From Amphiscolops sp. MND2022 (Eukaryota), in the NCBI GenBank assembly GCA_964187785.1, contig OZ076409.1, positions 33,916,001-33,980,000 on the forward strand: a DNA stretch of 64,000 bases. Reading direction: 5' to 3'. Shown here piece by piece: positions 1-35,375 of this stretch. Position numbers and translations under genes: made by a program. Positions within the stretch are counted from its first letter, which is position 1, and each line of letters begins with the position of its first letter. The notes under the pieces are model-generated. The model did not search any database and had not been told where the DNA came from. It worked only from the letters and a program-made list of their open reading frames with translations.

Positions 1-155
1 AGAGAGTATAATACAAGACGGTTCCCCCACCTTGGGACTGGCTCCTTCGGAGGGAAAATGAGCTAGAGCCGCGGAGATCTGGGTCCCAGATTATATTCGC
101 TGTTCTGGTTCCTCCACCCTACGTTGCGGTTCAAGCGCCAGCGCTTATCGTTACA
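1..155 (+). repeat. 3' part of 5' LTR
   Basis: Ends in CGTTACA. Identical to 17691-17845 except at positions 10, 11 and 118. Confidence 0.97.
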
Positions 156-170
156 TTGAAACTCATTTTT

Positions 171-186
171 TGGCGACCACAGAGGG
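171..186 (+). promoter_or_regulatory. Primer-binding site (probably tRNA-Arg type)
   Basis: TGGCGACCACAGAGGG. TGG complements tRNA CCA, and the rest resembles the complement of tRNA-Arg 3' ends (...GUGGUCGCCA). Lies 15 nt downstream of the LTR end. Confidence 0.75.
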
Positions 187-2741
187 CTTTCCCTAGCGGT
201 TTTTAAAAGATCTGGCCCCCTGGTGATCAGCGCCAAGCCCGTTTTCGACTCTGGACAGGAGAGAAGCAGAGTTTTACCTCTTTTTAGTCGTATTACGTCT
301 TACTGGAACTGGGAGAGGCGTTGAACCAGAGAAAATGCCGAAGAAAACGTGTTTTCAGGTGTGAAAATGGTATTTTTGGGCATTTTAGAAGGAAATCGCT
401 CCTTAGGTGTGATGTGTTGTGTACCCATCAGCGGGTACCTTTTTGCAGGTGTAGAGGACCGTAGCACGTGGCTACGGGTGTCTAACAGGTTTTTTGAGCT
501 ATTTTCAGCCATTTTATGCCATGCAAGAGGGTAACGGATGGATGGTTTACCATACTCCAGCGAGGCGAAGGAAGGGACGAATCTTGTGTTGCCTACTTCC
601 TATTCCCATTTCTCGTGGAGACGTCCTAGAGGCATGGTTTTTGGTGGACAGCAAGTGCAACGACAGACGGTGCTAATGGTCCCACCCGCGTGTTTCTGTC
701 TGGTCTAGATGTGGAGAAATAACGTGGTGAAGATGCATCCCTTGTGACCAGATGTGTCGCTCAGATGGAGTATGGTTGGCGAAAATTTCGAAAATACACC
801 TCTTTCGATGGAGAATCGTTGGTGCAGGTCAGTGACGTTCTACTATAAATGTAACGACACCCTACGAAGTGCTTTTCTGCGAAAAAGATAGCACTTGGAG
901 AAAAAACCTCATTTTTGCGTTTTTTTGGTGTTTTTCTTGGTTTCGAGCACTAGTGCTCACAGAAGCCAGGAAAGTTTAGTAGAAAGTTTTGAAAAAGCAG
1001 CTGCAAGGCTCGAGAAAGCCGGCACGAGGCACGAAAGGTGAAGTTGAAGCCTTTGATTGTGATAAAAGTGCCAATTTGATGCCGAAAAATGTGAAAAAAG
1101 TGGAAATTTGGCCAAAAAGGCACCCAAAATGTGAACGTACACGAGTGTGGAAGTGTAAAATGACAGTGTACGGCACTGCCCCAAGTGTGGTTGACCCTCA
1201 GGATAGTAATTGCAACTTTTGTAGCGGACTCAGGCAGCCTGGGGCTGATACAGTGTGAAAGACTTGTGATTTTTTGCATTTTCGAGCAGAGAAAGTGCAT
1301 TAACCGAAAACACCCAGACCGAAGTTTATTCGAAGAGAGCGGGCTCGAGCGCTCTCATTTTCGATGTTAGCAGCAAAAACGACGCATCGTGGTGAAAACC
1401 GCGTGCAAAAATTCCTTTTCAGTGCTGAGAAAAGTGGAAAAACGCACTGAATTTGATCAATTGTCCACAAAACTGGACTGTCGCTGAGCTAGGGTCGGGT
1501 CATCGATTCCTGAACCCTAGCCAAAAAGTGGTTGCATTTTCGTAACTACCACAAACATTAACGTTAGTGCCGAAAATTTGGTGAGCGTGTCGCTCACCAA
1601 AGTCGAGAAAAGCTCTCTGACGTTTCGACTTCAGAAAAGCATAAAAAAGCCGAAAATAACCATAACTGCAGGATTGTCAGTGCCCTATACCTAAAGGCAC
1701 AACCAATTGAGGGTTTATCCCAGTGCTACGGATAGTGGGGCAACATGTTGGTCCCATTTTGCCTGCCGTATCACTTTCTGAGGTGATCCTCTTGATCAAT
1801 TTGTGAAAAAAGTCGTCAAAAAAAGTGTTTTTTGGTGTACAACGTACATAGTGGGTCGAAACCTCAAATAAGCGTTCGCGCTTTAATTCGACCATCTTAG
1901 TGGCATTGTAGGTGCCCATTGGCGTAAACTACTAAGTTTGGTGCCGATCCGTGTGATACTTGTCGAGAAAATAGAAAAAACGTGGAGCCCAAAAAGGTGT
2001 CCAAAAAGGCAGTTTTTTCTTAACTTTTCCAAGTAACCCGGGTACCTTAGCCGACGGGTGGGGCCATATTGCAGCCCATCATTGTAACTTGTGCTAGTTC
2101 CTACGTTGTTGCAGAGCTTTTGAGCTTGCTAGCTCTTTCCAGTGGACCGCAATCTTGAAAAAGACGTGAAAAACAGCGTATCTCGGTACATAGTGGTACC
2201 GCACGTCTGCACCTAGGTGAAACTGTGTTGAAGGGGCGCAGCTCAAAACCGTGTTCATTTTCGTAAACCTACGTGTACCTAAGATCTGCTGGTCAATTTT
2301 GGGCTTGATACAGCGCTTCTAGCGCATACACGAGCCTCTTGAGTGTTGTCGTGCGAATTTTGAAAAATCCTAAAATTCTTTGAAGTCCTTCCTGTGAGTG
2401 ACCGGAGACTTTCTGCCCCAAACCAAGTTGATTTTCTGGCCCAGTGCGCTTGTGAGAAAACGCTGTGCAAAATTGAACAGCCTACAAGCTCTGGAACGTG
2501 CTTCGAAAAATCAAGGACATTGAGTAACATTAAATTTCTTAAGTGCTCACCGGGACGACCAAGGGATCAGCCTCGGATTGAAGACCCTGCTACGTTCGGC
2601 GACCCAATTTGAGTCTTCCGAGTAATCGTGAGCGGTAACTCGATCGCTATTAATAAGCGCGTGGCCACCGAACTGATGGCGGTGCCCCATACAGGTTCAC
2701 AATCGTGGGTTACGATAGATGGTTCGCGTTTTTCAGACGAC

Positions 2742-5700
2742 ATGTCTGACGAAGTCACTATCGAACAACAGCGAAAAGAGGAATTGGCCGCTATGGTTCC
2801 TCCCTCAGAGAACTCCAGTGTTTCCGAAAATTCGCGTCGGACCGAGCAGTGGGTCGACGAAACCTGCCGCGATAGAGTCTGAAGTGGAGGAGGGCTGGCC
2901 CAATTCGAATGCAACTGATGAATTGGTGGCTGAGGAAGGGTGCTCGCGCGCACCCCCGGCTGGAGAGACACGACTTGGCTCGCAGACCGATATGGAGCAG
3001 GACCTCACTTATGTGGGAGGCATGAGTTACGCGAGACAGCGAGGACTCGGGACCACTCGAGGACCTACCGGGGTCTGTGCCTACGGAAAGCACAAGAAGG
3101 TGCGACCACCCATACTGCAGGTAGGCGAACCACGTCAAGAGGCATCCCGTGTTAGGAGTATGACAGGTTCATTGGCATCATCGCCACGGTCTTCGGTATA
3201 CAAGGCAGCGCTATTGGATGCCCAAGCCGAAACCCAACGGGCTCTAGCAGGTCTAGCCAGCACTCGTGCTGAGTGCAATGAGCAACATCTTGCTATCGTG
3301 GAAAATATTAAACTGATGCAGACTACGATGCGTGAGGGCCTGCAAGTCAGCGATCAATTGCGTACCGCGCAAAACGTGCAAAATGATCGAGTGGACACAT
3401 TGGGTCACCGGATGGGAGAGATGAGATGAATGACATGTTGATGGCTCGCGAATTGCGCGTGGAAACGCAGATCAACGACTTAAGCAATCAGATGCACACA
3501 GTACTCAACGCCATCGATGTAATGAGGCGTGAGAAGTCACTCCCGCGACAGCCCAGTGCAAGTGGAGGCGTGCGGAATGGAGATCCAGTCCGTATCTCGG
3601 AGCCGACGTGCCCGAGCCAGGTAGTGAAATCCGAACTGCCAAGTGCGTTGAAGCCTAGCACTTCCAGGCCGGCAGTACCTGCGCCCCGGAAAAATGAAGG
3701 AGTAGCCGGAAATTTGGTGATAGCCACGCCTGAAGCAGAGCGCAAGCCTGCACGAGTGCAGATGAGGGGACATCACGACTCAGCAGAGTCATCGATGCCT
3801 TCTGCAGCCCAGAGCACTACTCGAGATCAAGGCGTGGATCCGATGTCAACCATCTATCTTGATTCTTCGGTTGACACCAAGGCAACCCTAGGTTCTCAAA
3901 CCGAGGGAGCAACGTTTGCAACTGCCCCCATGTCGACGTCAGGACCAGACTCCTTAAACTGGACAGCAGACTTGTTAGCCGATCATGGACTGCCCTCGGG
4001 CACTCCCTGTGCTAGTAGCACTCGCAAGAAGGACGAAATCGCTGACCTGTCAATACAAGCCACTCTTGGTAGTCATGACAGGACGCGCGAAGGGGAAGCT
4101 AAGGTCGAAGAAGGAGAAGCCATATCCCCTGAGCAGCTGAGATTCACGGCCGCCATATCAAAGGCAATGTCAAAAGAGTTAGCGCCTTTACTCGCCGGCA
4201 GAGAATTGGCTCAGGCGAGACCTAATCTATATCGCGGTTCTGAAGACGGATCCATTGATGGGTGGATCCTTATTATGCAGAGATACCTGAAGAGAACGCA
4301 AACCAAGGTCTCGGCCGAGGACCAGGCCTGGAGCGTCATCAGTCACCTTGAAGGTGAAGCCCGCAACTACATCATTAACAAAGCGGAATCCGAACGTGAC
4401 ACCCCCGAGAAGGTGTTCGAATTGTTATCCAGCCGCTTTGGCGCTGGAGGAAATCGTATGCAAGTACGACAAGCCTTTCAGAGCCGCATTCAACATGAGA
4501 AAGAAGACTGGATGCAGTATTTAGACGCTCTAGAGGGTCTTAGGAGTCAAGGATTCCCGCAAGAGGCAATCACTACCAAGCGCTACGAAATCCTCCAGCG
4601 CTTCATGAAAGGCGTACGAGAACCAGCGCTGAGGCGGGAACTATCTATAGTGTATGCCTCGGAAGTCTTCCTGACCGAACCACCTAATGTGGAATCCCTT
4701 CGCTTCACCACCCGCCAATTGCAGCGCAATCGTCCCAAACCTAACCAATTCCCTCAACCCTATGACCCCAGACTAGCAATGAGGTCTAGACCTCATCCCT
4801 TCGCGCCACTACCCCCCAACAAAATGGTGTTACCACAAGGAGTAATGCCTCCCCCACCTGCGAGCAATGCCCCTCCAAATCAGGCAGCAGCGCGGCCTGC
4901 GGCACGCCTACCCGTTGGAGCATGCTTTAATTGCGGTCAAGCTGGGCATTTTGCCCGGGACTGTCCCACCCGCGATCAGGCTCGCAAACCAGTGGCAGCT
5001 CCCGAGCCAGAAGGCGTGAAAGTCACTGCTGAAGACGTAATCGACGGTGTGTTGGAGAATTATCCAGGCATTCATCAGTGTGCGCACTGTGGAGTCTCTG
5101 ACCATGTGGATGTCCCCTGTGGTGAGCACTCTCAAGCTCCAAGGCCTAATGATGAATTGGCCTATAATCGATGGGCCGAGGTGGAATCCGCTGGTGTGGC
5201 CGCCCACACGGTACCCCTGGAGGATGATCGCGTGTTAATGCTGCACCCAGCGGAGCCCCCAGCGTTTCATCCCCCACTGATAGTTACGTGCGGAACAAAG
5301 CAGATCCAAACGTGCTTGGAGCCCACCACGTTCGATTCACAAGGGAGAACGTTGATCTCGATTCATCTGATGCTGGCAGCCGAGCAGGTGCGTAGACCAA
5401 CGCCAACCTTGGCGAAACTCTGGGTTGAGCTATCTGTCGTCTATAACCGGATGGAGTTGCCCCGCCCAAAGCAGTGGTACGTCCCTGGAGAGTCGGAGAC
5501 CCTGACTACATACTCGCCAGTACCGGTTTGTGCAACAATGGACGGCGTGGACGTGAAGTTTGAGGCCTGTGTGGTGGTAGGTGTATTCCCACCCGGCTTA
5601 TGCTTGGGACCTCAAGAGCTGAAATGCTATAATATCAACCACCAAGAACCCACCGGGGAAGCGCGGATAGATGAGCGTGCGTCGCTTGTTGTCTCTTTTG

Positions 5701-6509
5701 TGGTGCCCCATGCGGCACCTATTCCACTGCGAGGTTTGGTGGATACTGGTTCCGGGGTGTCCATACTAACCTTCTCCGCCTTTAACCGGGTAGCTGCACG
5801 GACCGGTGCGGTCCTGAAACCCTATCAAATTGATTTGTACGCTGCCAACGGGAAGACAATAAAGACTTTCGGGTTGGCTGAGCAGGTACGCTTCCAGTTG
5901 GGAGGGTATGAACTCGAAACCAATTTCGTCGTGGTAGATGACGCAATGGGCGTGGAGGACTTTCTGTTGGGTCGAAACTTCCTCCGTTCCTACCAAGTCC
6001 TGGTAGACCTAACCTCCATGAAGATAGTGGCGCGAGCACCAGTGAAGCCCGTCTGGCATCATGCACACACCCAGGTAGGTGATGCTTCGCTAACTACTCC
6101 CATTGCTCTGGACAGTGACCTGGTCCTACAGCCTTTCGAGCGTACAGTGGCAAAGGCTAAACTTGTCACCAACGCGCTTGAACCATTAATTTTCCAGACC
6201 GTGGCGCTTAACGCCTCGTTGTCTGACCCCTCATTGCAAAATACCATCTTTTTAGAGGACAGCGTGGCCACTGTCAGTGAGACAGGAACACTGTATGTGA
6301 GTCTGGTAAACCTCACCAGCAACCAGCAGCGTGTACGATGTGGTGCCCACCTGGGCACGGTAGTGCCTGTGTCTTTAGTATACCAGGCTGTGCCCCAAAA
6401 GCTGGATGCTACTGCAGAAACTGACCACAAAACTGAAGCCGACGACAGTCGAGCAAATTTTGTTTATAAAGTGTACAGTGAAATGAACCTGCCACTGCTT
6501 CTGAGTTAA
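2742..6509 (+). pseudogene. gag: Gag-protease region (N-terminal coiled coil, capsid-like region, two CCHC knuckles, aspartic protease, dUTPase-like region)
   Basis: ATG at 2742 joins ORFs 2628..2882, 2719..3429 and 3426..6509 through two frameshifts; one is a 5-nt AGATG duplication at ~3418-3428. Knuckles CFNCGQAGHFARDC and CAHCGVSDHVDVPC. Protease LVDTGSGVSIL...FLLGRNFL. Confidence 0.9.
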
Positions 6510-9500
6510 TTTCTTCATCTGAAATTGAGTTTTTATCTTCGACGGACCCAAGCAAAGCAGGGCTTTCGGAGCGCGAGATTCGCAAGCGCACCGATCCGGA
6601 CCTATTGGCCCCGATCCCTGGGCCCGATTCTCAACTGCAAGAAGTTAAAAAAAACTCTGGGGCGCTAGCGCCTGCGAGTCCTTGGACAACATTCTTAACG
6701 AGTTTGATGACTTATTCATGAAGCGTAAGGCGGATATTGGCCGCTGTACCATTGCTAAACACACGATAGAGGTAGAGCCTGGGGCTGTACCGCACCGTGA
6801 AGGTGCTCGCAGAATGTCTCCCGAAAAGGCTGAACGAGCCAACCAGGAGGTTCGGAGCCTACTGGCCTTAGGGATGATACAACCTTCACTGTCCCCTTGG
6901 GCAAGTGGCATCGTAATGGTAAAAAAGAAAAGCGGGGAGTAGCGTTTTTGCTGTGACTTCCGACCGCTGAATGAAGTAACCATTAAGGATGCCTACCCCC
7001 TGCCCCGCATCGACGAAAGCCTGGCGCGACTGGGCAATGCAAAGATCTATACTAGCATAGATCTTGCCTGGGCTTTCTGGCAGATTCCGCTGCGAAAGGC
7101 GGACCGCCACAAGACAGCTTTTGCCTGTGAGTTGGGACTCTTCGAATGGCGAAGAATGCCATTCGGCTTGTGCAATGCATCAGCCACCTTCCAGCGAGCA
7201 ATAGCGCGAGCGCTACAAAAAATAGTTAATCGCAAAGGCATCATGGTCATGGCATACATCGACGACATAGTAATAGCAACGGAAACTGTGGAAGATCACA
7301 TGGCGCGTCTGCGCGACGTCTTTGAATGCCTCCGCGAGGCTGGTTTCAAGATGCGCGTAGCCAAATGCGACTTCATGAAACCAGAAATCAAATATCTGGG
7401 ACGCGTAGTCTCCGCAGAAGGCGTCAAACCGGACCCGAAACTGTTGCCAAACTGCGCGATTGGGACATCCCTCGCAACAAAACGGAAATGCAAAGTTTTC
7501 TGGGATTCGCCAATTATTATCGTGAATTTATCCCATGGCATGCCAAGCTGGTTGCGCCCCTCCACGCCGTTACTGGACTGAACGCCACGTTTGCATGGGG
7601 TCCTGATCAGCAAAAGGCCTTCAACGAAATCAAGAAAGCATTGATCGAGGCGACTGCGCTCGCGCAGCCTGATTCTGAAGAAGAGTTTGTGCTGGACACT
7701 GATGCCAGCGCCGTGGCCATTTCCGGCGTCCTACACCAGTGGCAAGGAGCTCCAGGAGAGCGACGCCTACGACCGATCTTATACGGCAGCAAGAAATTGA
7801 CCACCACCCAAGCCAAATATGGGGCACCCAAACTGGAGATGTTTGCAGCCTACTACTTCATCCTGAAATACCACAGCTACCTTTGCCCCCGAAAGTTCAC
7901 CCTGAGAGTTGACAATCAAGCCCTATCCTGGTTGAAAACCTACTCCACGGACCAAGCATTGATTGGACGTTGGATCATGACGCTGGACAGGTATCACTTT
8001 CGTGTGGAACACAGACCGCGAACTCAACACCGCAATGCTGATGGCTTGAGCAAACGAACCAACGATTATCGATGCCGAGAACAGCAGCTTGCGCAGCTGC
8101 CAGCTACCGGAGAGCGTTGGAATTTCCTCTCGGCCGAGGAATTCGACAACCTCCCCGTAGCCCCCTGGTTCGACCTGCAAGGTCGAATAATTCCAAATCA
8201 TCCTGACCTACCACTGCATCTGCAGAACTTGGAGCCTAAGGCTCCTGACCAAGCACTTCGTGTGCTTCGCCGTGTGCAACGAACGAACAAGCGAGAACGA
8301 CAGGCAAAGGCGCTAGCCGCACCTTTACCGCCTCAGCCTCCACCCGTGCTGCAAAAGCACGAGGACTTCTACCCAGACTATCCTGAAGATTGGATAGACG
8401 TAACTACTGAGGCAAGCGAGGATTACCTGCTGCCAACACATGCAGTAAACGTCCCCTCTCGCACCATCTATTCAGTGGCGGAAACGAGTAACGCCATGCT
8501 ACAGAACTCTCCTGGTGGCGTGCGCGAGTCGATTATGGCCCTCAAGGACATTGACACCGAGCTCCATGAACACACTCATACCGTACATGGGATCAAGGAT
8601 TTAGTCCTAGCCCAAAACCGCGATGTCCATGTGCTAGCACTAAAGAAGCTCCTGCAGTGTGAATCCCTAGATAACGATGTGTTTCCCGAGAACGTGCGTG
8701 AGTTCGCACGTAACTACTTCCGCCAGAAAAAGGACCTCTTGTTCAATAACAAGAATGATGTCCTTTGCGTGCAATACTCCCCCACCCAACGCCCATTGCA
8801 CGAACGTCCGTGCATGATCATAATGCCTCAGCTATACCAGCATGAGATTCTGTTCCGTGCGCACGACGCAATGGGACACCAAGGTATCTCAAAAGTGGTA
8901 GCTCGAATTCAAGAGCGCCACACTTGGCCCGGCATACGGCGCAGTGTCGGTCGATACGTCGGCCAATGCCTCACCTGCCAACAAGTACGTGACAAGCCTG
9001 GTGACATACGAATTCAACTGAAAAACATTCAGAGTGGCTACTTCAACGAGTTGGTCCAGTATGACCACTTAAAAATCTGCCCCTCTGATAACAACAACAC
9101 CGGCATTTTGGTCATCATCGACCATTTCTCTAAATTTGCAGAGGCAGTCCCTTGTAGTCACCATGACTATGACGCAGTGACCACCTCACGATTGCTGCTG
9201 CAGAAATGGTTTGCCCGCCACGGCACCCCCACTCGCATGCAATCGGACAATGCTCCCAACCTTACTGCTGAAGTCTCTAATGAGTTCTTAAAGGCAGCCC
9301 ACGTCACTAAAGTGACCTCTACTGCCGGACATCCACGAACACAAGGTTTGGTGGAACGCCAAAACCGAACCCTCTTAACCCTGTTGCGAGTCTTTTGCTC
9401 GCGCCGCATGCGCGACTGGGACCAATGCTTAGATGAAGTGATCGGTGCCTATAATTCTACCAGGCACGCCACCACAGGCTTCTCGCCCTACATGTTAACA

Positions 9501-12013
9501 AGGGGTGTTGAGAAAGCAATCCCCCTCACCTTTTTGTACCCTGAATTTGCGGCCAAGTCCTTTGATACGCATGAAGCATACGTGGATCATGTGTTGGCTC
9601 GCCAACAAGAAATTCACGACTTGGTCCGGCGCAATACGCACCAGGCCCAATTACGCCAAAAATTGAAATATGATCGTGCTATTCGAGCACGAGCCTACCA
9701 GCCAGGAGAGCCTGTCTGGGTTTTTTGCCGCTACGTGCCTCAAAAAGGCTTCCCCAAGCTGATGCGCGCCTGGCGTGGCCCGCACAAAGTAGTACAAGTC
9801 TTTCAAGAAGGACGTGTCTACGTGTTGGACACAGGCCAAAAGGTTCATTTTGAGCGCCTAAAACCTCATCACAGTGGGCCCCTTGAGCTCGCCACCGCGC
9901 AAGCGGACAGCGGCGAAATAGTGGTACTCATGGACCCTGACCCTGAACGTTCTATTGAAGTAGTTGACGACGATAAGTCCCAGCCTTCATATAAAACTGA
10001 ACAACTACTTTCAGAAGCATCTGACGTATCCTTGCCTTCGCGCAAGCACCATTGGATGGATACCCGTCTGCGCACAAAGCTACGTGCTGGAGGTTCCCGC
10101 ATGCACTACCAGCAGTTCGACTACTCGACCTCGGGCACTGACGACGAATTATCCGAAATCATGTTACCGGTACCTCCCGATCCAGTTGATGCTGATCGTA
10201 GGGAACCCGAAGTCCCCCAACCCCCATCAGACCAATCAAACCATCGTCTACCTCAACTATTCTCAGACCATGAGCGCGCGCGCTCTCCGTCACCACAAAT
10301 ATCTTCCCCCGAAAAACAGCCCTCATTATTGGGAACCTCGGCCCCATTACTGACAAATCCATCGCTAACGAGTTTCCTCAATAACTATCCCATTTGGCCG
10401 GCCGCTCCTTCCCTCCCTCTGAAGTCCGCCACCGAGGATGACGACGCTCAATCCAATGTGCCTACTCTTCCCACGACATTGCCCGGAGCGGGGACCGCTC
10501 CTTCTTTCAAAAGGGGGAGGGGGAGACCACCCAAAACGCGAAAACGGCTGGTTAGAGCGAAGGCAAGAACGAGGAAGAAGGAAACAACAACAACAATGCC
10601 ATTGGAAACAGCAATGCCGACCGAGGCTTCTGAGGTCCCCCGATACCAGTTGAGAAGCAGGCGGCAACCACGCTACAAATGCGGGACCTGTGGGCTGCGA
10701 GACTGTGTTTGCTTGCTAGCCGTCAATGAGAACCGGAGGGTTCCCACTGGAGCCCGGGGAGTTCCTCCGGAGCGGGGAGAAAATCTAGTACATCGCCTTA
10801 CGGTGAGAGCTGAGAAGACTTACTCTTCCCTGGAATGACACGGAGACCATCCCGTGGAAACTATTCTGGAGAAGTTATCATCACCTGGAGTAGCGAACGC
10901 TCCATGTCCTCGATTCAAGGAGTGGACTAGCGACGGAAAAGGGTTAGAGTTTACCCTCGCAACGGTGATGCCCCCAGTACCCAGCAATATTGCGTTTGGA
11001 CCCTTCAACTTCGAGCGGGAGCCTGTGCAAATGGTCCGATGCATCACCGCTGATCTTCTCTGTGACAAATACGGAATTCACGTGGATCCGGGCGGAGTAT
11101 ACAGCCCAGCGCCGCACTGGTGGTTGCTGGTTACTGCTCCACGAGTGGAGGCAATAGTGGAACCACTGCACCTGCTGTCCTGCTTGGAAGGTCTGAGGAC
11201 CCTCACTACCGCGGACTTGATACTTTGCTTCCACATCATAGACTGGTATCGTGGCAAAGTGAAATTCGCGTGGTGGTTGGAACTAATCATCACTTGTTTC
11301 ACCAATTATCCTCGCATTAGATTGCTGGATGAGTGGACTCATACTTTCGAGATTCCACTTCCCTCAAAAGCCGCTTTGAGCACCCTAGACACATAGGTCA
11401 GGGCGAGCAGTGATAATCGAGCGATGCCACGCACGGTGTGGCAAGACCTGGCTGCAATCCAGTGGCGTACGCCCCGCGTATGCTTACCTGCTGACAATGG
11501 GCCGGGGAGAGAGATTATCTACCCGGGAATTCTGCATCCAGCCCCAATAGAGCACCTCTCGTACGATGTGACTGACTTTCTTCAAGTAGAAGGTGATATG
11601 GTGTTAGCGTGTCCCGCTGACCTAGAGACCAACTCAGCCGCCCTACGGTATATGCTACGAGAATGCGGCAAGGAGAATGTGTTCTCCTTACGTCCCAAGG
11701 TGGGGGAGATTCTCACCATTCCCCCTGATATCAACCCAAACCCCAATCAGAGTGTTCACTTATTGATAATCAGAGCAAACCAGCGTGCGCCGCTGCTCTC
11801 CGACGACTACCTACGTTGTATGACACACTTAATACAGCGTTTGATAGAGAAAAGATCCACGAGGTTCCACCTACCTATATTGAATCCAGAGCGACCCGCC
11901 CTCTCATTGGTAAACTAATACCATCCCTAACGAATTTGCTGGAGGGCACTGGCATTCACGTGGTGCTGCATAACCGCGTGTATGTGTCCATTCTGAGCAT
12001 AGGGCCAGAGTAG
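6490..12013 (+). pseudogene. pol: Pol: reverse transcriptase, RNase H, integrase and long C-terminal extension
   Basis: RT motifs SPWASGIVMVKKK, RMPFGLCNA, YIDD, YLG. RNase H motifs DTDAS, KLEMFA, VDNQAL, NADGLS. Integrase HHCC (HDAMGH...CLTC), D-D-E (YDHL, SDNAP, VERQN) and GPY/F-like WRGPHKV. Lesions: frameshifts at ~6490, ~6650, ~7440, ~11915; stops at 6940, 10836, 11394. Confidence 0.95.
10944..11975 (+). other. Two tandem TARG1/OARD1(Poa1p)-like macrodomains at the end of the pol frame
   Basis: ORFs 10854..11396 and 11424..11918 are in the same frame as pol ORF 7326..10838. By eye, both follow the TARG1 pattern (LAHCISED / GEVAVL / IYYLITK / LQKSLEAM / LSMPRIG / EVFEATDIKITVY). Confidence 0.65.
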
Positions 12014-12248
12014 CCCGCCCAAAACTCTTTTCTGTTGCCCCCAATTTAATTTATTTACCCCGATAATTGTCATGTCTGGGATGAAGTCTTAAACTATCCC
12101 ATGAAATGATTACCTTGTAACGTGTCGTTAAATAAATCCTATCTTTGTGTTCTAGTTAGTTAGTTGAACTACAATTTAAACTTGTTGCGGTTCCCCTATG
12201 GAACCATCTTTGTTCATAGTGGCCGCCCTGCTCACTCAACTAGACACA

Positions 12249-15200
12249 ATGCAGACGCTGCCGGGCGTATCTGTGTCTCTGGTGACGGAAGTGGCCGGTT
12301 ACCGTCGCACGCTAACCTGCCAAAACAATGCGTGGGATAGCCACGATTTGACGCATCAGTTCTTGGATGAACGCTCTACCACGGTGCTCGGGCCTAGCCA
12401 GGGCACGAGATTCGAACAAGAAGCTTCTCTGTGCCTGCCAGCGTTGCAACGATGCCACCTCCTCAGATGGTCGCATTGCCCCCACCAGCACCAAAACCAG
12501 TACCAGTGACGTCAACTTATTCCGGTTCACCTGCCTTTGGGACCTCATATCGAGCGCCACATATGGTACTGCAAACCACTACTAGTGCACCAGTCTCTGA
12601 TCGGGAGCCCTCGGGGTCCCGGTTACCACCCATACCTAACCCAGAGCTGACCGGAAGAAGTACCAGCGAACAGGCCGTAATTGTGGCCTTGTAAGCAGTG
12701 GCCAACTATCCGAACTCCTCCGATTTTGTTCGTGCCGTAGAGCAGAGAATCCCTGGACTAGCCACTTATCTGCAAGCTGCTGTCCAGCCCTCGGGCTGTG
12801 ACCCTCCTGACCCCTTAGTGGAGACGGCATCTATGGATGTGGAAATTGCTGCCGGACCAAGCAACAGCACAAGCGCTGCTACTGGCACACGAGAAGAAGC
12901 CGGGAGAAAGCGACTAACTGAAGAAACTGCCTCAGTCACCCCAGCTAGCTCAGTAACCGAGAGCCCGACTAGTCGTCCCCCTCCCGATAAGCGCGCTGAT
13001 GTACCTCGACCCCAGCTGAAAAGTGTAGTCATCCCAAGGCCTCCGTACCGGGTGGGTAATCTAGGCCGAGGCGCGCCTCAAATGTCTTTAGCGGACGCGA
13101 TCGAGCAGTATGGAGATCCGGATGCAGGATCGGAAGTGAGCTCTGTGCCCTCGGGCACGAATCCAATAGATATGTCCCTGGAGATACCTGAGACGGTGGA
13201 GGAGGCCCGTCCTCCAGCCTTCCTCCCTCCATCTGATGACGTATCCGGTTCAGTAGTCACCAATGATAGCAAACGCATTTGGATGGCGGCTGAGCATCTC
13301 TACCCCAGTCAATGCGCTATAAAGAAAAGGGCCCTTCCAACTGAAACGGAGCAAAAGGAGATTAACCGAACCACGATACCAGCGCAGGTCACACGTTCGC
13401 TGCGCCCCCGGGACGCGGATATGTCGGAGCAGGCCTGGGAACAGCGTGCTCGAGAGCAGCTGCCTACGACAACTAACGATTACATGGCACCCCTGCAACA
13501 CGACATCACCGAGCAATTCCCCGCACGGTATGTGTTGCGCGAAGGTGAGACATGGGAAGCGAACGCCCGCTACGCCCGCAACTTAAGATCTCTGAAACCA
13601 CTATTGAAAGCAGCTCTGCAGCGCGCGCTACTGCATGGCGGTTGATTCTACCTGCCGGAGTGACCTGCCTATCGACAACTTGATGCCTGACGTGCTGGTG
13701 CTGACTATGCCCCTGTCTCGCTTCGCTGAGATCGCTGAAATGGTTGGAGCCATATACGATCCAAACTTAAGAGGATCACAGAAGGAACCACCCCCACAGC
13801 GTGTGATCTTTGCCAATCTTCTGGATCACATGGCATGCGAAGGGTTGCTGCGTGACCTGGACGCTATAATGTCCGATGTCCGACGACCTGGAGAAATTGC
13901 AGCCCTGGTAAATGAGGTGGTCGGTGCAATGGAACGTGCCGCAGGGATCCTTCGGGGTCGCCTGGGAGCGCTCGCGCTCTTTATATCCCCACCGGGATTT
14001 ATGTACTGGCCACGAAGTCTGCAGCAGTTTGTTTACATTCTGCTGGAGGTATGCAAGGCGCGCAGAGTCGAATTTGCCATCTGTGCACCAAACTTGCGTG
14101 TGGACCGAGAGGACCTGCGCCCAGATACCTTATCGTATCCAGCCTTCTTTGCCGCCGTATCTAGAGCACTCGTGGCTATGGAACGCTCAGGAAACGCCCA
14201 GCTAACCATTGACGACGCGATCCTCTATGATCATGGGATGCGGATGGGCAGAATGGCCTTTGACCTTGACGGCAACCGCATCGCCCGAGAGTCAAATGTG
14301 ACCGAACGAGAGGCTGTTCGTCGGTACAACTGGCTAGTGCGAAAGGACAGAGAAATCCCAGTGCGTGCAGAGTTAGCCGAACTGACAAAACAAATCGATG
14401 CATGGCCTGCAGCGCGCACCGTAGAGATAACAATCCCTCAGATCCACTTCGCCTCAGGAATCGAGCCCGTGAAGCTGCCTGTAGGACTGCGATGCATCGT
14501 GGCAATGGAAGCAACAAATCTGAAGGCAGAGGTCGACGCCGCAGCTACCACCTACGCCTATTGGTACCAGACTAGGTTTGCCACCATGACTCTAGCAGAA
14601 GTAGCTCGAGAGCTTAAATTGTCCATTGGAAGCCTTCTGTACCAGTCTTGGTCTGGGATGGAACCTTGAAGTGCTAACTTCGGAGTTTTCGTTGACCCCT
14701 ACGCAAACGGACAAGCTACTAGAAACAATTGGAGAGGCAACTGTTGGAGAAGTACTAGCGCTCGCGCTAGCGATGGGTCCAACGAAGTTTGTAGCCGGAC
14801 CACTAGCCCTATTTATCGACATCGTGATTGCCTGCGACCTCGCCGTGTTCTACAGCTACTTGGTCCTGGCACAAGGACAACTACGCAGCCTGAACCGCTG
14901 GGGACATTTATTGACCTCCAAGGACCAACAAGATTATTCCGCCCAACTGGAGCGCATGCGTGCGTCGATCCAGCACTGGCTATACTCCACCCTGGTGTTC
15001 GCCTCCGGTCTATTCGTAGGCGTGGACCAATCCCAACCACTACACAACTCAGACCAGCAAATCCCACGGGAAACGGCAGGATTCCCCTTGCCGCGGCAAA
15101 TTGCTGATCTTACCCTGGCTGAGGTAGAGGATTTTGTGGCAGCCATGGCTCCTGTCTTGGCCCCCATCTTCGGCGCGGTGGGCGTATGCCGATACCCTAC

Positions 15201-16360
15201 GAAACCGTTAGCAACAGCAGTCCAAGTGCACATGGTCTCCTTTAGCACCTATCAGCGAGGCCGTCCCTCACTGGCATATCCAAGGGTAATACATGCCGTG
15301 CTGAGTGGTGAAGTACCGCATGGGTACACGACCGTGAAATCCGAAAGAGAGTTGGAGGAGAACCTGATGGGTTTGTTGCGCGCGCACCAGGAAAGCATGT
15401 CCTCTGCCGCGAGAGCATGGGACTGTGAACTGGTACTCCGCACCTCTCAGTTTGGAAGGAGTCCCCTTTAGATTCCCCTGGAGTCAAGAGTTCATAAGAA
15501 AGGCGATTCGCGCCAGCACTAGTGCTGGTCCACCTGTGGACCCTTTATACTGCTTTAAATGCATCGCTTTCCCAAACCGCTATTGAAAGGAGCCGTTGGG
15601 TTGGCCAAGGGCGAAACCCGTTGGACGCGCCCCGGAGGTCTTCAACCGTCAAATCCAGCACTTGGAATCAGCCCAGATCCCAGGATGGATTGAAAGCGCT
15701 GCTCAAATCAGGCAAAGGAATCTCCAATCTCGCGTTACCCCATTCCCCAGGAAGTCGGTGTGGAAGCCTACGGGAAAGATGACTATGTCTGGAGATATGT
15801 CCATCGTCCAGCATGATGAGATAAATTCCGTGTTGGGCTCGACAGAACGAGCAAGATGGGAAGAGTACTGTCTGGAGTTGGAGATTGCAAGCTTCCCTAA
15901 GTGGAAGAGAGCTTGCGAGCTCTGGAGCCAACCTGGATGGATCTCACGCCGAGTCGCACTAGCGGTAGAAGGTAGAGCAGAAATAGCGAGACAACAGGCG
16001 TTCGCGCCTACCATGCTCGCACCAACGATGGCGATGTCTTTGGATCGGCCCATCTCTCAACCGATCACCATTAACCTTCCAACCAACAACTTGGAGCCAG
16101 AACCAGTTGGCCCGTCTTCGTCGCGAACCAGCCCTCACTCCTTGCAGCAGCAGTCCGGAGAGCACACTGCCGAGTTGACTCCCAATGCAGCACTAGTGCA
16201 GCCTATTGCCGAGTTGTCGCTCCCCGAAAGTCCGTCAGACTCTGAAACAGTTGCCACAGAAGTCTCTCCTCGACGTCGAGCGTCAGTGTCGACTGATAAC
16301 CCAGAACAGAACTCAGATGATGCCACTAAAGAGCGGACCCGACGCATTTCGGCTCAATAA
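12249..16360 (+). pseudogene. Additional long ORF (~1370 codons reconstructed): Pro/Ser-rich N-terminus, SGNH/GDSL-like domain, helical region of unknown function
   Basis: Chain of abutting sense ORFs (12198..12509, 12431..12694, 12698..13645, 13635..14669, 14626..15471, 15596..16360) linked by single frameshifts or stops. GC content is similar to pol and the flanks are AT-rich spacers. Confidence 0.8.
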
Positions 16361-17100
16361 ACCCAGCCGCTAATGGGAGCGTTCGCGCTCCCTATACCCT
16401 TGCAGACTGCCAACAAACAGTGCCTTAAAACTTCTCATCCAGAACGGTGCTACAGTACAAAGTGCAATTTTTGTTCTTAGTTATGGTTATATAATTAGTG
16501 TACCTTTACTGTTGCACTGGGTGTATGGCCAATAGAGTACGCCTGCCCCAGTGGCTTGAATTACCAAGCAGAAAGAAGAAAAACTATTAATCAGAAAAAC
16601 TGCTATTTTTGTTGCGCACCGTTCGCGGTGTTTTTGAGTTGTCACAATCAAAAGAAGTTTTATCCCTCTTGATTGCATTTTTCTTTCTAGTCTAGTGTTC
16701 TTCATCAATTTGGTTGTTCACCGTAAGAGCCCGCAAGCTCTGAAAAAAGTTTTTAATCGCCAGAATAGAATTGAAGACTACAAGTGTCAAATGGTAAGAA
16801 AAAGAAATTTTAGCCGACTTGGTCGCAAAAAAATTTTTACGTAAATTGTCTGCCCAAACGAGTTTTAACTGGCTGAAAACTTTAGCTCTCGACCTGGTGC
16901 TAAAACCTCGTTCGTGTTTTGTACAAATAGCTAGGCAGTAAGTCTTTTTTTCTCAAAAAAAAACAGCAAAAACTGACCGAAATTGTTGCCGAAAAACAAG
17001 GACTCGTCCTTGTTCCCCGATGTGTGGATGATGGTTCCCAGCAGTCACCGTGATGCAGTTTCCAGACGAGCCAGACGCCGCTTGCCAGGGACGACAAGCC

Positions 17101-17117
17101 AGGAGACTGGGGAGTGA
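17101..17117 (+). promoter_or_regulatory. Polypurine tract
   Basis: AGGAGACTGGGGAGTGA lies immediately before the TGTAAC start of the 3' LTR. Confidence 0.8.
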
Positions 17118-17845
17118 TGTAACGGCAAGCTCTGGTACAGCAATATCAACCGACGTGTTTAGAAAATTTTGTCAAAAATTCGTTCAAATTTGACGTGGCA
17201 CTCAAACATGCTCAAGACGAAGTACCTGCCAGAAAAAGCACCCCAGAAAAGCAGAAATCGCCGCTCGCGACGAACAAGCACCGGAGACGACTAAAAGACG
17301 TCCCCAACGCATACAGGACACGGTATTGTGTCCATCTCTAGGAGATATCCATTACTACAGTAAAGGAAACCGGTGTTCCAGATGTTCGCCTGAGTATCCC
17401 TGCGGTATCCTGTGTGGCAACTAGCGCTAGCGCTGGGAAGCTGAGGTCAATTTTCATCAAATGACTCTGAACTCTTGATCTCTTGTTGTATTTTTGATGT
17501 GGTAAATCAATATGCTCGAGAGCTGTTGTTTAACATCTGTTTATCCAATTTGGCGATTTTATCAGATTCTCCAATATTACGGTTCAACCGTCATCAATTT
17601 TCAGCCCGATTTTTAAAGGCTAGTCGAGCAGTGGTCTTGAGTCTTGCAAGATGCCTGTTACTTTTAGCAGTTACAGACTAGGACCAGGCCAGAGAGTATC
17701 CTACAAGACGGTTCCCCCACCTTGGGACTGGCTCCTTCGGAGGGAAAATGAGCTAGAGCCGCGGAGATCTGGGTCCCAGATTATATTCGCTGTTCTGGTT
17801 CCTCCACTCTACGTTGCGGTTCAAGCGCCAGCGCTTATCGTTACA
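17118..17845 (+). repeat. 3' LTR (728 bp)
   Basis: 7-bp terminal inverted repeat TGTAACG...CGTTACA. Its last 155 nt match the window start. Confidence 0.95.
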
Positions 17846-22942: not shown

Positions 22943-23148
22943 CCTTCAAAACATGTGTAGCATTTTGGCCCAAACGTTCTCGGCAAGCAATGTCTGCTTC
23001 ATTCGCAGGAGCCGACCCAGACAACACCTGAAACACCACTTCTGGGCCACATTTGATGGACAATCCACGAAAATTGGGGGGAACTACCAAAACTACCCCA
23101 AACAATTAAAAAAAAATGCTCAATTCAGAATTTCGAGATTTTTGGAAA

Positions 23149-23303
23149 TTGCTCGAGGTTGCTCGAGGTCGCTCGAGGTTGCTCGAGGTTGCTCGAGGTT
23201 GCTCGAGGTTTGCTCGAGGTTTGCTCGAGGTTGCTCGAGGTTGCTCGAGGTATGCTCGAGGTTTGCTCGAGGTTGCTCGAGGTTGCTCGAGGTTGCTCGG
23301 GGT
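23149..23303. repeat. Minisatellite of 10-11 bp unit GCTCGAGGTT(T), ~15 copies
   Basis: Tandem array visible directly. Confidence 0.97.
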
Positions 23304-23819
23304 CTATTTTTCGAAGATCGTTCAATTCGCATCAATTTCGAAAACTTTTGCTTCATGTTGCACAATTTCCCAGGTTTTTGCCAAAACTGAAGATTTCTGG
23401 GGGGGAAATGATCAGGTGTGACCAGTTTCAGTTTGGCTTCATGATTTTCTTGGTTTGCGTGATAGAGATTCGCGTTGGCGCAAAATTCATGGGCGAAAAC
23501 CCCGAAAACAGTGTGGGAAAACACAAATGGTAGCAAAATTCCAATGATCTATCTGTTTCATGTAGTGTATTGGGAGGATCAACTTGAAAATGTTGCTTGT
23601 TTGTTTGGAACCAGTTGTGTTGTTTAAAAGCAGAAATGAGTTCATGTAGGGCATACGACAAGATCATTGAAGATTATCAGACAAAGAAACAGCTCCAAAA
23701 TTGTTGAAACCGATCAGGGATTGTCATACATCAATGTCATGGATCATCTTCGACGTTATAAGGGCAGTAATCGTTCTCTCATGTCTTGGGGTTAAAAGCT
23801 GTGTTGATGATGTTTGAAA

Positions 23820-26229: not shown

Positions 26230-28054
26230 TATAAAATACGCATTTCGCGCAATTTAGGTTATGCATACCCAACAATTCGTAAGTAAGTCATCCCGCTTTT
26301 GATAGAGATTGTTAGGAATTGACAGTGGTGGTTTCTGGAGAAATATTAGAGCCATAATAAGGTTGTAATACTGAGAGTTGTCCAAAATCACTATCAAAAT
26401 GGGCATTTCGTGCAATTTTCGTTCGTACTTGCCCGAGACTCTGCAGATGAATCGTCCCGCGTTAAATAGGGTTATCTACAATTTGATGGGAAGCCACCCC
26501 CAGTAAAATGTAGAAACCTCTGTTTCAAGCGGGACGACTTACATGAGGACCGTCGCGTATGTATATATTATAGTTGCACGAAATGCCTATTTTATGGGAT
26601 TTTTGGCAAGTTCCCGCCAATAATTCGGAAGTAAATCATCCCGTTTTTGGTAGAGATTGTTAGGAATTGACAGTGGTGGCTTCTGGAGAAATATTAGAAC
26701 CATAATAAGGTTGTAGCACTGAGAGTTGTCCAAAATCACAATAAAATTGGCATTTCGTGCAACTTTCGTTCGTACTTGCCCGAGACTCTGCAGATGAATC
26801 GTCCCGCGTTGAATAGGGTTATTTACAATTTGGTGGGAAACCACCCCCAGTAAAATGTAGAAACCTCTGTTTCAAGCGGGACGACTTACATGAGGACCGT
26901 CGCCTATGTATAGACTAAAGTTGCATGAAATGTCTATTTTTATGGGATTTTTAACAAATTCCCGTATCACACTCTTATTAGTGTTACATTCTTCTTCTAT
27001 AAACTAACTGCAGCACAATGAAACAATTTGTATTGTAAGCGGGACCAGTTATGCATACATTCTTGCGTATGCATAAACTAAATTTACACGAAATGCCTAT
27101 TTTTATGGGGATTTTGGACGATTCCCGTATGTCCTCCATGCCATTTTCCAACATATCTCCAAACACCACACCCAACAAACTGTGGAATAGCTATTAAAAG
27201 CGGGACGAGCTTCTTGCGAATTATTGCGTATGCATATATTAAAGTTACACGACGTACCTATTTTTATAGGGATTTTGGATGAGTTCTTGCGAGTTCGTGC
27301 GTGTGCATAAAATTAAGTCGCACAAATTGACATCATTACTACCTCCTTAATATGTGTTTTTTGTTTGTCAGCTGCTACCTTCAACAAACTATATAACAAA
27401 CTATTAAAACCAAGATGATTTATTTGCAAATTCTTGCATATGCATAAACTACAGTTGCACGAAATGCTTATTTCTAAAAGGATTCGGGCGAATTCCCGTA
27501 CAACTGTCCTGATTATCTCCATAATGGGGTTCCCTTAAAAAAAAACACCCCAACGTAATGTCGATATCTCTATAAAAACAAACTGTACCATTTATGTGTA
27601 AATTCTTGCACATTCATAAACTACAGCGGCACGAAATCCGCCCTTTTCTAAATTAAGGTTTGGTGGGGCAATTTCCCGTACACAACAGGTATTAGTGTGC
27701 TAAATTTGTGTCCTAATTCTACTAAAACCCCATGCCCACACAGCCACATACATACATACATACATACATACATACATACATACATACATACACACTCCAC
27801 ACATATCATGATCTGACACATGTCGGCTCTTGTTCGCACAGGCTGGGCGTGTGATCCGAGAACTTGGCTTTCTCGCTTGGTACCTCTGCAGACAACATAC
27901 CACGAGTTGACAGAGGGTGAGACTTGCTGACGCACAGGCTGGGCGTGTGTTCCGTCAACCTCTCTTTGGTTTGCCTTTTTGGGGGGAAATTAGAATCAAA
28001 AAAACCAAGTTGTGATACGGGAGTTGGTCCAGAATCCCTATAAAAATAGGCATT
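26230..28054. repeat. Complex array: ~348-bp tandem duplication plus a recurrent ~70-bp motif with variable spacers
   Basis: 26274-~26615 is repeated from 26622. The motif GTTGCACGAAATGCCTATTTT-ATGGGATTTT..TTCCCGTA recurs at ~26573, 26920, 27083, 27244, 27454 and 27626, and inverted at 28013-28054. Confidence 0.85.
27747..27792. repeat. (CATA)n microsatellite
   Basis: About 11 tandem CATA units. Confidence 0.97.
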
Positions 28055-28254
28055 NNNNNNNNNNNNNNNNNNNNNNNNNNNNNNNNNNNNNNNNNNNNNN
28101 NNNNNNNNNNNNNNNNNNNNNNNNNNNNNNNNNNNNNNNNNNNNNNNNNNNNNNNNNNNNNNNNNNNNNNNNNNNNNNNNNNNNNNNNNNNNNNNNNNNN
28201 NNNNNNNNNNNNNNNNNNNNNNNNNNNNNNNNNNNNNNNNNNNNNNNNNNNNNN
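28055..28254. other. Assembly gap (200 N)
   Basis: Run of N. Confidence 1.
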
Positions 28255-30530: not shown

Positions 30531-31505
30531 CAATGAATACAAGCATCGAACTGTTTCTGGAAATAAGTGGAACGGTCTTTTTAACCACTGAAAACGAAAA
30601 CTCTAAACAAGTTGGAAACGACAACGAGGCTGTACGACAAGCGGAAAAATTGTCAAAGCAAACTGCTTTTTCATCATGTTCAAATTTGTATTCAAGGTAA
30701 AAAGTATCACCCAAAGAAATCAACTAACTTAAAACTAGTATCAAGCGATTGGTGTTTGCTCAGACTTTTTGATTTTTTTGTTGATCCTTAAGACCACAAA
30801 ATGACTCAGGAAAGGCCCCAAATTGACAAAATTTTCTGATTTTTGTCGTTTTAATGCAATTTTGATCAAACTTTTGATAAAAATGGTAGCTTATGAATGT
30901 TTGAAAAATCGATTGAAAAAAACATCCGTTATCTGGGGGGCTATTGTGAAGAAATAAACGCAGTTTTTCAGTTAAAAACGTCTGAATTTGACAGAACTTC
31001 CAAAATTAACAGGTTTGTTGCAACGTTTCAAAAAAATTTGAAAAATTCCGTGAATCGAAAAGTTCAAACACGTTTGAATTCGTTGTTCATTAGAGTGCAC
31101 AGGCAAGCTTAATTTGCTCAAAGCGCAACTTTGTGCTTTCAATACCTCGGATTCCACGACCATACCTTTAACCGTGCAAAATTGGCAAATTACGTCATAA
31201 GTCCCAGATTCCACAGATTTCGTCGTGGATTCCAGTAACAAATGCTTAGCTGTGCGCACTGTCGGCATGCCGTTGTGTCCCGGATTCCACAAAAACGTAA
31301 GTTTTGCAAAACTAACCAATCAGAATGCAGAAATCATAATTTTCCTGGATTCCACGAATTTATGCTTGACGCGATACGCGGCATGGCATCTCTTCTTGAA
31401 TTAATTTCAAGTGGAAGACTGAACAAACCTAATATTATGCACTACTTTTCGTATATTAACTCAAAATGATTCAGACTAACACACCAGTATTACACAAATA
31501 TTCGT

Positions 31506-34500: not shown

Positions 34501-35375
34501 TCGTATTCTTTGAGGGTTAAAATAAAAGAATGGCACATCAACGTTTGCAGTTTATATCTAATTGGCTTTTGTGGGAGGTATTTGCTGATTCGTGGCTGAA
34601 GAATGTCTCAATAGGATCCGAAAAAAAATCCAAAACGTCAAATGTCCCTTTTTGACAATTTTTTTGATTGTTTGTGAAATGTTTTTTGAGTTAGACAGTT
34701 CCAAAGCTCCAGACAATCTATCAATCTAGGATTTGTACAATTTGAAGGAACGTTTTGTACTTTTCTGGGTGAAACTTCATCTCCGAATCAGACCGAAAAA
34801 CGTCCGAAAAACGTTTTGTTGGAGATTTCTTAATTTTTCGTTCGTTAGAAGAATGAAAACATTCAATAGCAAACAGTAATGGATGGAGAAGTTGCTATTT
34901 GGACGTGATATTTGCAGTGATTGGCTTCAAAAACACTTCAAAATGATTCCAAAGAGTCGAAAATAAACGTTTAAAGAAGAAAATGAACGTTATTCGAAGA
35001 AGAAAACCGTTCAACAACGAACAAATGTGTGATCCTTTGAAGTTCAGTTTCACGTTAGAGAAGTGCCTCAAAATGACCCAGAAAAAGTCGAAAGATTTCA
35101 TTTAAAATTTTTGAAAATTGCCCAAGTTTGTGATTGAGAAGTTTCTAAAAAATCTTTCATTATGATGAGGCATGCAGAAGGTATTGAAGAAAGTAATATA
35201 CGGTAGGTAAAAAGTTCATCAGAACTACCTAGAATTATCTAAAGGCCATTTTTTGTTGGTTTTGGAATTTTTAAATACTTTTTTGTAAACCTTTCGAGCA
35301 ATTTCGGAATTCAACAGCAATCGAACCCGTTATCTGATAAGATAGGTCTTTTTGAAAAGTCATTTTCAGTTTTTT
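31506..35375. repeat. Near-identical tandem duplication with 2129-bp period, containing ~235-bp sub-repeats
   Basis: 31742 matches 33871 and 32766 matches 34895 (offset 2129). Sub-unit CCAGTCATGAGTATCTCTATTCGTACTTTGGG occurs at ~31590, 33250, 33486 and 33719. Confidence 0.95.

Follow-up and report, generated by a model that had tools for sequence, protein, structure and literature searches.

The window analysed here is a stretch of 64,000 nucleotides from Amphiscolops sp. MND2022 (contig OZ076409.1, positions 33,916,001 to 33,980,000 of the forward strand, assembly GCA_964187785.1). Its first 17.8 kb are filled by one long terminal repeat (LTR) retrotransposon, present as a disabled copy (Table 1). 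The element carries paired LTRs with TG...CA ends, a primer binding site, and a purine tract. In its gag-pol region Pfam detected, in order, a PNMA-like gag, a CCHC knuckle, protease, reverse transcriptase (RT), RNase H, and integrase, an arrangement of Ty3/gypsy type. A large third open reading frame (ORF), ORF3, follows; as an initial annotation of this DNA had stated, it occupies the position of env, after pol and before the 3′ LTR. By structure prediction, its central domain takes the SGNH fold of esterases but has Arg in place of the catalytic His, which would make it a pseudo-esterase; ORF3 is under strong purifying selection.

In the window copy, ORF3 is no longer intact. The initial annotation had taken positions 12,249 to 16,360 as one ORF, whereas alignment to an open natural copy resolves five frame pieces, separated by four frameshifts (near 12,434, 13,625, 14,615, and 15,382) and interrupted by two stops (12,692 and 15,584). 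The ATG at 12,249, where that ORF was taken to begin, is an internal Met codon; the true start codon was lost in a deletion of ~240 bp near 12,215, together with the splice acceptor and the opening ~55 codons of the gene. The two LTRs are 99.0% identical and, because they diverge by 1%, the frame damage fits ordinary decay after insertion. Most of the motifs on which the SGNH assignment was first based are genuine: VLVLTMP, RVIFANLLDH, ALFISPP, EVCKARRVEF, and REDLRPDTLSYPAFFAAVSRAL all lie in one frame, 13,608-14,669. The exception is “LHGG,” a wrong-frame reading across a frameshift, where natural copies read RYCMAVDST; in their block I, a hydrophobic residue stands at the Gly place of GDS. 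The description of both ends as Pro/Ser-rich applies to the last ~120 residues (39% Pro/Ser/Thr), but the N-terminus is a conserved domain of ~110 residues, and the other Pro/Ser/Thr-rich part of natural ORF3 proteins spans residues 136-395 (34%).

The abundance of ORF3 was analyzed by searching the genome (1.07 Gb in 1,929 contigs) with the central domain, which gave 3,017 candidates. All 150 scored copies were 94-100% identical, and in 14 of them the frame runs open, free of stops, for 1,428-1,439 codons; the natural length of ORF3 is ~1,430-1,440 codons (~4.3 kb). An exact pattern found at least 232 sites of the window’s own subfamily (A-type). ORF3 copies in the genome number hundreds or more, and further subfamilies are present in it at about 80%, 50%, 40%, and 30% identity. 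From these, 26 elements were fetched, picked mostly by long open frames. Gag, protease, RT, RNase H, and integrase were found by tblastn upstream of ORF3 in every element tested (19/19), the other subfamilies sharing the Ty3/gypsy domain order; in the remaining seven elements, ORF3 is preceded by long frames and followed by an LTR. The length of complete elements falls mostly between 18 and 19.7 kb, and in subfamily F gag and pol can form a single frame of 3,100-3,200 codons.

In 13 elements, the tree built from integrase and that built from ORF3 have the subfamilies in the same order, with ORF3 evolving several times faster. For the SGNH-fold domain, the ratio of nonsynonymous to synonymous substitution rates (dN/dS) comes to 0.04 when subfamilies A and B are compared and to 0.05 for C against E, where dS is near saturation; it is 0.04 for a pair of B copies and 0.06 within a set of nine A copies. 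Over the whole of ORF3, nine A copies give 0.13. For the closest pairs the ratio is about 0.5, a value expected where private decay dominates. The low ratios and congruent trees bear out the view that the gene is element-borne and under selection, and they rule out an unselected captured host gene. That outcome was one of three named beforehand as contrary to the initial annotation; the other two, a fold unlike SGNH and a fusion glycoprotein, were likewise not found. When 1.84 billion representatives were searched with a profile, 663 matched; the 150 of these that were listed are mostly fragments of the same subfamilies. P0134 has no match above 37% in this genome, P0179 has none above 31%, and the P0131/P0203 group shares ~27% identity with the compared subfamilies. 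Because these sequences are so distant from the copies of this genome, an ORF3-like gene with the same layout appears to exist in other organisms. No relatives were found in metagenome or viral contigs.

The fold of the central domain was addressed by structure prediction, and the model supports the SGNH-type fold suggested at the outset. A 321-residue AlphaFold model from 48 sequences has a predicted local distance difference test score (pLDDT) of 83 and a predicted template modelling score (pTM) of 0.83. Compared with 48,161 chains, its best structural match is platelet-activating factor acetylhydrolase (PAF-AH), with Z 11.0, root-mean-square deviation (rmsd) 3.6, and 184 aligned residues (Z 11.2 in a second comparison). 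Nearly all of the 50 matches listed are SGNH/GDSL proteins by title or knowledge, and 25 of the chains listed reach Z ≥ 8. Residues 8-245 of the model align with 10-216 of the PAF-AH chain, a match that takes in the N-terminal extension as well. A profile comparison with canonical SGNH proteins of the genome, itself not significant, placed blocks I-III in register. On this modelling, it is very probable that the domain has the three-layer α/β architecture of SGNH proteins, its blocks following one another in the order I, II, III, V. By sequence, the ORF3 family has no Pfam or NCBIfam match. Weak PDB-sequence matches to the tobacco mosaic virus capsid, a designer pentatricopeptide repeat protein, and a polyketide synthase were rejected as short or repeat-driven. 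In the ESM Atlas, the first search gave a best value of 0.87, which serves as a lead only, and the second gave no match; library searches with the N- and C-terminal regions likewise found nothing.

SGNH catalysis is described as requiring Ser, Gly, Asn, and His, usually with Asp, in blocks I, II, III, and V (PMC10792757). These positions were counted in 88 distinct copies of this genome. In block I, 85 of 87 copies retain the nucleophile Ser and between them use every one of the four TCN codons. The oxyanion Gly position of block II is Leu, Cys, or Phe in 88/88. In block III, whose register was fixed on the conserved Asp, the oxyanion Asn is absent from the N position in 88/88, and the block reads N-x-hydrophobic-D compared to G-x-N-D; the His of its Asn-x-x-Asp-His motif is present in every copy (88/88). 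In block V, the proposed replacement of the catalytic His holds throughout, with Arg in 88/88, and the acid position is Asp in 3/88. Arg stands in the His position also in the outside lineages P0134, P0179, and P0207. The block II Gly is present in the outside P0203/P0207 lineage, and the block III His is replaced by Tyr or Asp in P0179 and P0207. A few decayed fragments deviate at the active site, and one of them reads His. Judging from these residues, standard SGNH catalysis has probably been lost. A replicating His-bearing master lineage was considered and is unsupported: His occurs at 4 of the ~232 A-type sites, two of these copies being nearest to Arg copies and two nearest to each other. 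The Arg codon (14,118-14,120 in the window) is CGC or CGT only in all eight subfamilies, which makes it unique among 11 invariant Arg columns. A restriction of this kind is seen in 1 of 55 four-fold invariant columns, and the pattern was spotted after the fact.

Around this domain, ORF3 consists of an N-terminal domain of ~110 residues, a Pro/Ser/Thr linker, and, beyond the SGNH fold, a region of ~550 residues and an acidic tail. The “~600 aa helical domain” annotated at the C-terminus corresponds to this ~550-residue region, which is conserved across copies, but its helical nature is weakly supported: a 930-residue model from nine sequences has a pLDDT of 40.6, and fold searches with it were uninformative. 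An internal hydrophobic segment, with a 19-residue Kyte-Doolittle mean of 1.7-2.3, was found in every subfamily scanned. Neither an N-terminal signal nor a C-terminal anchor was detected by hydropathy and motif scans of ten natural proteins (no dedicated signal-peptide predictor was used). The non-Env reading of the gene is thus upheld as to the lack of a conserved furin site and of a C-terminal anchor; to deny the protein any transmembrane-like segment would be too strong, because of the internal hydrophobic segment. In subfamilies A, B, and D, a branch point and a TTTTAG acceptor lie 6-12 nt ahead of the ATG. Because these signals are conserved just before the start codon, we infer that ORF3 is made from a spliced sub-genomic RNA. 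A screen for copies re-inserted after splicing gave four matches, each of them a natural CAG acceptor variant.

What might such a protein do? PAF-AH, its best structural match, acts on a phospholipid. With an SGNH fold in which the catalytic His is replaced, the domain may bind a membrane lipid rather than cut it. By analogy, we tentatively favor the reading, which may well be wrong, that the ORF3 pseudo-esterase tethers the element’s particle to anionic membrane lipids. The protein would be translated from the spliced sub-genomic RNA and would stay cytosolic, as suggested by the absence of signal peptide and anchor. The Ser/Arg pocket would hold, but not turn over, a head group of phosphate or carboxylate type; the conserved hydrophobic Pro/Gly segment would dip into the bilayer, and the flexible Pro/Ser/Thr linkers would reach the Gag-RNA particle. 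Tethering might then aid assembly, transport, or vesicle export, substituting for Env. A precedent is the esterase of ZfL2-1, described as binding anionic phospholipids and liposomes and not oligo-A RNA, with active-site mutants that still bind liposomes (PMC3905857).

The ligand could instead be RNA. The OSK domain of Oskar is described as an RNA-binding SGNH fold devoid of catalytic residues (PMC5785220, PMC10792757), and it is among the structural matches listed for ORF3 (Z 7.4, rmsd 4.3, 163 aligned). An OSK-like pseudo-enzyme might scaffold or localize the RNA of the element, as in germ granules, or shield it, as from silencing. The invariant Arg could bind a backbone phosphate, the segments flanking the domain are basic (isoelectric point, pI, 8.8-9.4), and disordered linkers suit granules. 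However, OSK is only 46th of the 50 matches listed, behind PAF-AH and many active esterases, and the OSK profile (PF17182), run over the genome, found other repeats and not ORF3 among 22 scored candidates. The SGNH-fold domain is near neutral in several subfamilies, which also speaks against RNA binding. This explanation is possible but doubtful.

A remnant of chemistry has been considered as well, in which the Ser nucleophile would transfer an acyl group or cleave a phospholipid, slowly or in a single turnover, and the base would be another residue or the substrate itself. The retention of Ser in 85/87 copies with all four TCN codons and of the block III His in 88/88 would agree with such a non-standard enzyme, and so would the Arg codon, limited to CGC/CGT in eight subfamilies unlike the ten other invariant Arg columns, a pattern noticed post hoc. 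The block III His is nevertheless Tyr or Asp in P0179 and P0207, the site lacks the oxyanion Gly and Asn as well as the acid Asp, and the Asp-Ser motif and block III Asp are described as playing structural roles (PMC10792757), so that activity of this kind is unlikely. The partner might also be a protein. As an adaptor resembling the LIS1-binding PAF-AH subunits, ORF3 would link the particle to host transport machinery, and the first rank of PAF-AH, the coverage of the N-terminal extension, and the match to the LIS1 complex (1vyh, Z 10.1) point that way; inactive PAF-AH homologues are described in insects (PMC3905857). Yet the bacterial GDSL proteins 3p94 and 4ppy score less than 1 Z unit from PAF-AH with the extension covered too, identity is 11-13%, and this analogy appears distinctly improbable. 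An unrecognised envelope or esterase-fusion glycoprotein, for which the env position, an acceptor conserved as in env genes, and one or two internal hydrophobic segments could be cited, is highly improbable, because there is no N-terminal hydrophobic signal, an acidic Pro/Ser/Thr tail takes the place of a C-terminal anchor, the furin-type motif was not found in subfamilies C, D, E, and F, and Cys counts 2 against 138 invariant columns, with no Cys invariant, where an ectodomain would be expected to have more.

Several observations weigh against an SGNH-fold pseudo-esterase that grips membrane lipids. The Foldseek check proposed by the initial annotation ranked SGNH proteins high, yet returned none at E ≤ 0.001, and the profile comparison with the genome’s canonical SGNH proteins scored below its reversed control. 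The equivalence of His and Arg was taken from motif register and the place before the last helix, not from residue-level superposition. The occurrence of His at four A-type sites is roughly what decay would produce, although two of the copies concerned are mutual nearest neighbors among the 34 compared. The dN/dS values come from copies picked because their open frames were long, and dS approaches saturation in comparisons between subfamilies. The pI of the SGNH-fold domain ranges from 5.2 to 9.3 in 12 copies and is not consistently basic, and the N- and C-terminal regions have no library match and no fold assignment. The splice acceptor is less clear in subfamilies C, E, and F, and the spliced RNA is deduced from sequence. 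Finally, a shared fold shows no function, and the ligand is the weak step of the lipid reading.

The clade has further peculiarities. A 3-bp target duplication was found in 16 of 21 scored elements, across subfamilies; among the other five, one fits when its LTR start is re-placed, two lack a genuine LTR pair, and the last two, which include the window copy (2 of 3 bases), mismatch. Target duplications made by LTR integrases are usually 4-6 bp, a length that is typical of Ty3/gypsy, not defining. The primer binding site, putatively of tRNA-Arg type in the window, lies 15-17 nt past the LTR end in 25/25 elements with both located, and the usual distance is 0-4 nt; with such a spacer, the integrase would need to trim a long overhang. 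At the end of pol there are two tandem macrodomain-like units. The second resembles the TARG1-type macrodomains of other retroelements of the genome (probability 89%, score 43.5, shuffle maximum 23.2), and the first is weak (probability 6%, score 23.2 vs. shuffle 18.2). The conserved macrodomain motifs are degenerate in both, and neither has a Pfam or PDB match. Pfam-detectable macrodomains occur in several other retroelement families of the genome (L188-L203), after integrase or between protease and RT. In another gypsy-like family (L143-L150; L149:853-2406, minus strand), an apparent integrase C-terminus is followed in frame by a canonical SGNH domain, whose blocks show GDS, G, GTND, and DGIHP.

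Table 1. Features of the retrotransposon and its surroundings in the 64,000-nucleotide window.
Feature	Position	Strand	Remarks
5′ LTR, 3′ end	1-155	+	Full LTR ~727 bp with TG...CA ends, starting ~570 bases before the window
Spacer between LTR end and primer binding site	156-170	+	15 nt; 15-17 nt clade-wide
Primer binding site	171-186	+	Located after the 15-nt spacer
Leader between primer binding site and gag	187-2,718		~2.5 kb, without long ORF; no splice donor identified
gag-pol	2,719-12,013	+	Broken into several frames; Ty3/gypsy domain order
Two tandem degenerate TARG1-type macrodomain-like units, pol end	10,960-12,013	+	Approximate boundaries; second supported, first weak
Site of ~240-bp deletion	12,213-12,219	+	Took branch point, splice acceptor, and ORF3 start
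ORF3 remains	12,219-16,360	+	Alignment to open natural copy, 93-98% protein identity
SGNH-fold domain (predicted)	13,620-14,196	+	Coordinates taken from motif positions
SGNH-domain landmarks	13,647; 13,707; 13,815; 14,118	+	Ser codon; block II; block III; Arg (His position)
Conserved C-terminal region	14,300-16,000	+	~550 aa
Conserved hydrophobic Pro/Gly segment	15,133-15,189	+	P-I-F-G, then R-Y-P
Purine-rich tract	17,100-17,117	+	Ahead of the 3′ LTR
3′ LTR	17,118-17,845	+
Repeats and inverted-repeat element outside the retrotransposon	23,139-23,314; 26,269-27,637; 31,488-35,379; 45,681-46,183; 53,832-54,673		10-bp tandem array, several longer arrays, ~2.1-kb tandem duplication, inverted-repeat element
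Run of N	28,055-28,254		200 N

The gene touches the question of how an LTR element that has no Env can get into the germ line or through membranes, and the roles given to captured esterases in retroelements have so far mostly been guesses. Here, a very successful clade keeps a large, apparently non-catalytic third gene across subfamilies of ~30% identity; the retained domain separates binding from hydrolysis, and it is compact and well predicted. In its most far-reaching form, the proposal is of an LTR lineage in which Env has been replaced by a large cytosolic device, a lipid-gripping Ser/Arg pseudo-esterase with a membrane-inserting domain of new fold, that would move particles into vesicles or between cells, in elements also marked by 3-bp duplications, a 15-17 nt spacer, and dead macrodomains; taken as a whole, this is rather unlikely. 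The 3-bp duplication itself points to an unusual integrase geometry. Structure-based LTR finders use a duplication of 4-6 bp as default, and those that demand it would miss or mis-bound these elements. New are the size and architecture of ORF3 and the His-to-Arg change fixed under strong selection in a high-copy clade, together with the 3-bp target duplications, the spacer of 15-17 nt, and the degenerate macrodomains on pol. No literature was found that deals with the ORF3 family, with LTR elements carrying a dead SGNH ORF3, or with LTR elements that make 3-bp duplications, in a search that had Repbase, Dfam, subscription journals, and supplements outside its scope, where an entry may exist.

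SGNH ORF3s in LTR elements and dead GDSL derivatives are already known. The precedents first cited for the window, LINE (long interspersed nuclear element) esterases and Oskar, are relevant, but they omit the GDSL/SGNH ORF3s of LTR elements and the dead Athena GDSL (PMC5408684). The bdelloid Vesta LTR retrotransposons are described as encoding a GDSL/SGNH ORF3 with S, G, N, and H intact (Rodriguez, Kenefick, Arkhipova 2017, PMC5408684). As in the present elements, the SGNH-type domain lies in a separate ORF3 after pol, in the place of env, and has no transmembrane anchor; its role is thought to be auxiliary or membrane-related (PMC5408684). The Vesta ORF3 is short, was amplified as 1.3-kb clones, and belongs to low-copy families (PMC5408684), whereas, compared with that published description, the ORF3 presented here is ~4.3 kb long, has additional N- and C-terminal domains, has Arg in place of His, has lost Gly and Asn, and is present in high copy. 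The Athena-L GDSL derivatives resemble it, by their description, in being catalytically dead SGNH domains in a retroelement, but their host elements are Penelope-like and not LTR elements (PMC5408684). The esterase of ZfL2-1 ORF1p, of a kind described in CR1/L2, RTEX, and Penelope elements, is also a retroelement-borne SGNH domain, and the lipid-binding model is borrowed from it; unlike ORF3, it has an active triad, a coiled coil, and a place in ORF1 of non-LTR elements (PMC3905857), and its structure is not among the matches listed for the ORF3 domain. Oskar OSK likewise has an SGNH fold without catalytic residues but is a host germ-plasm protein shown to bind RNA, and PAF acetylhydrolase Ib alpha, the best structural match, is an active host enzyme of ~215 aa with 11-13% identity. 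Burro and Ogre are, as described, oversized gypsy-like LTR elements with extra ORFs or domains, yet their cargo is different, Burro has env homology within its polyprotein, and the size of Ogre comes largely from its long LTRs (PMC6431247).

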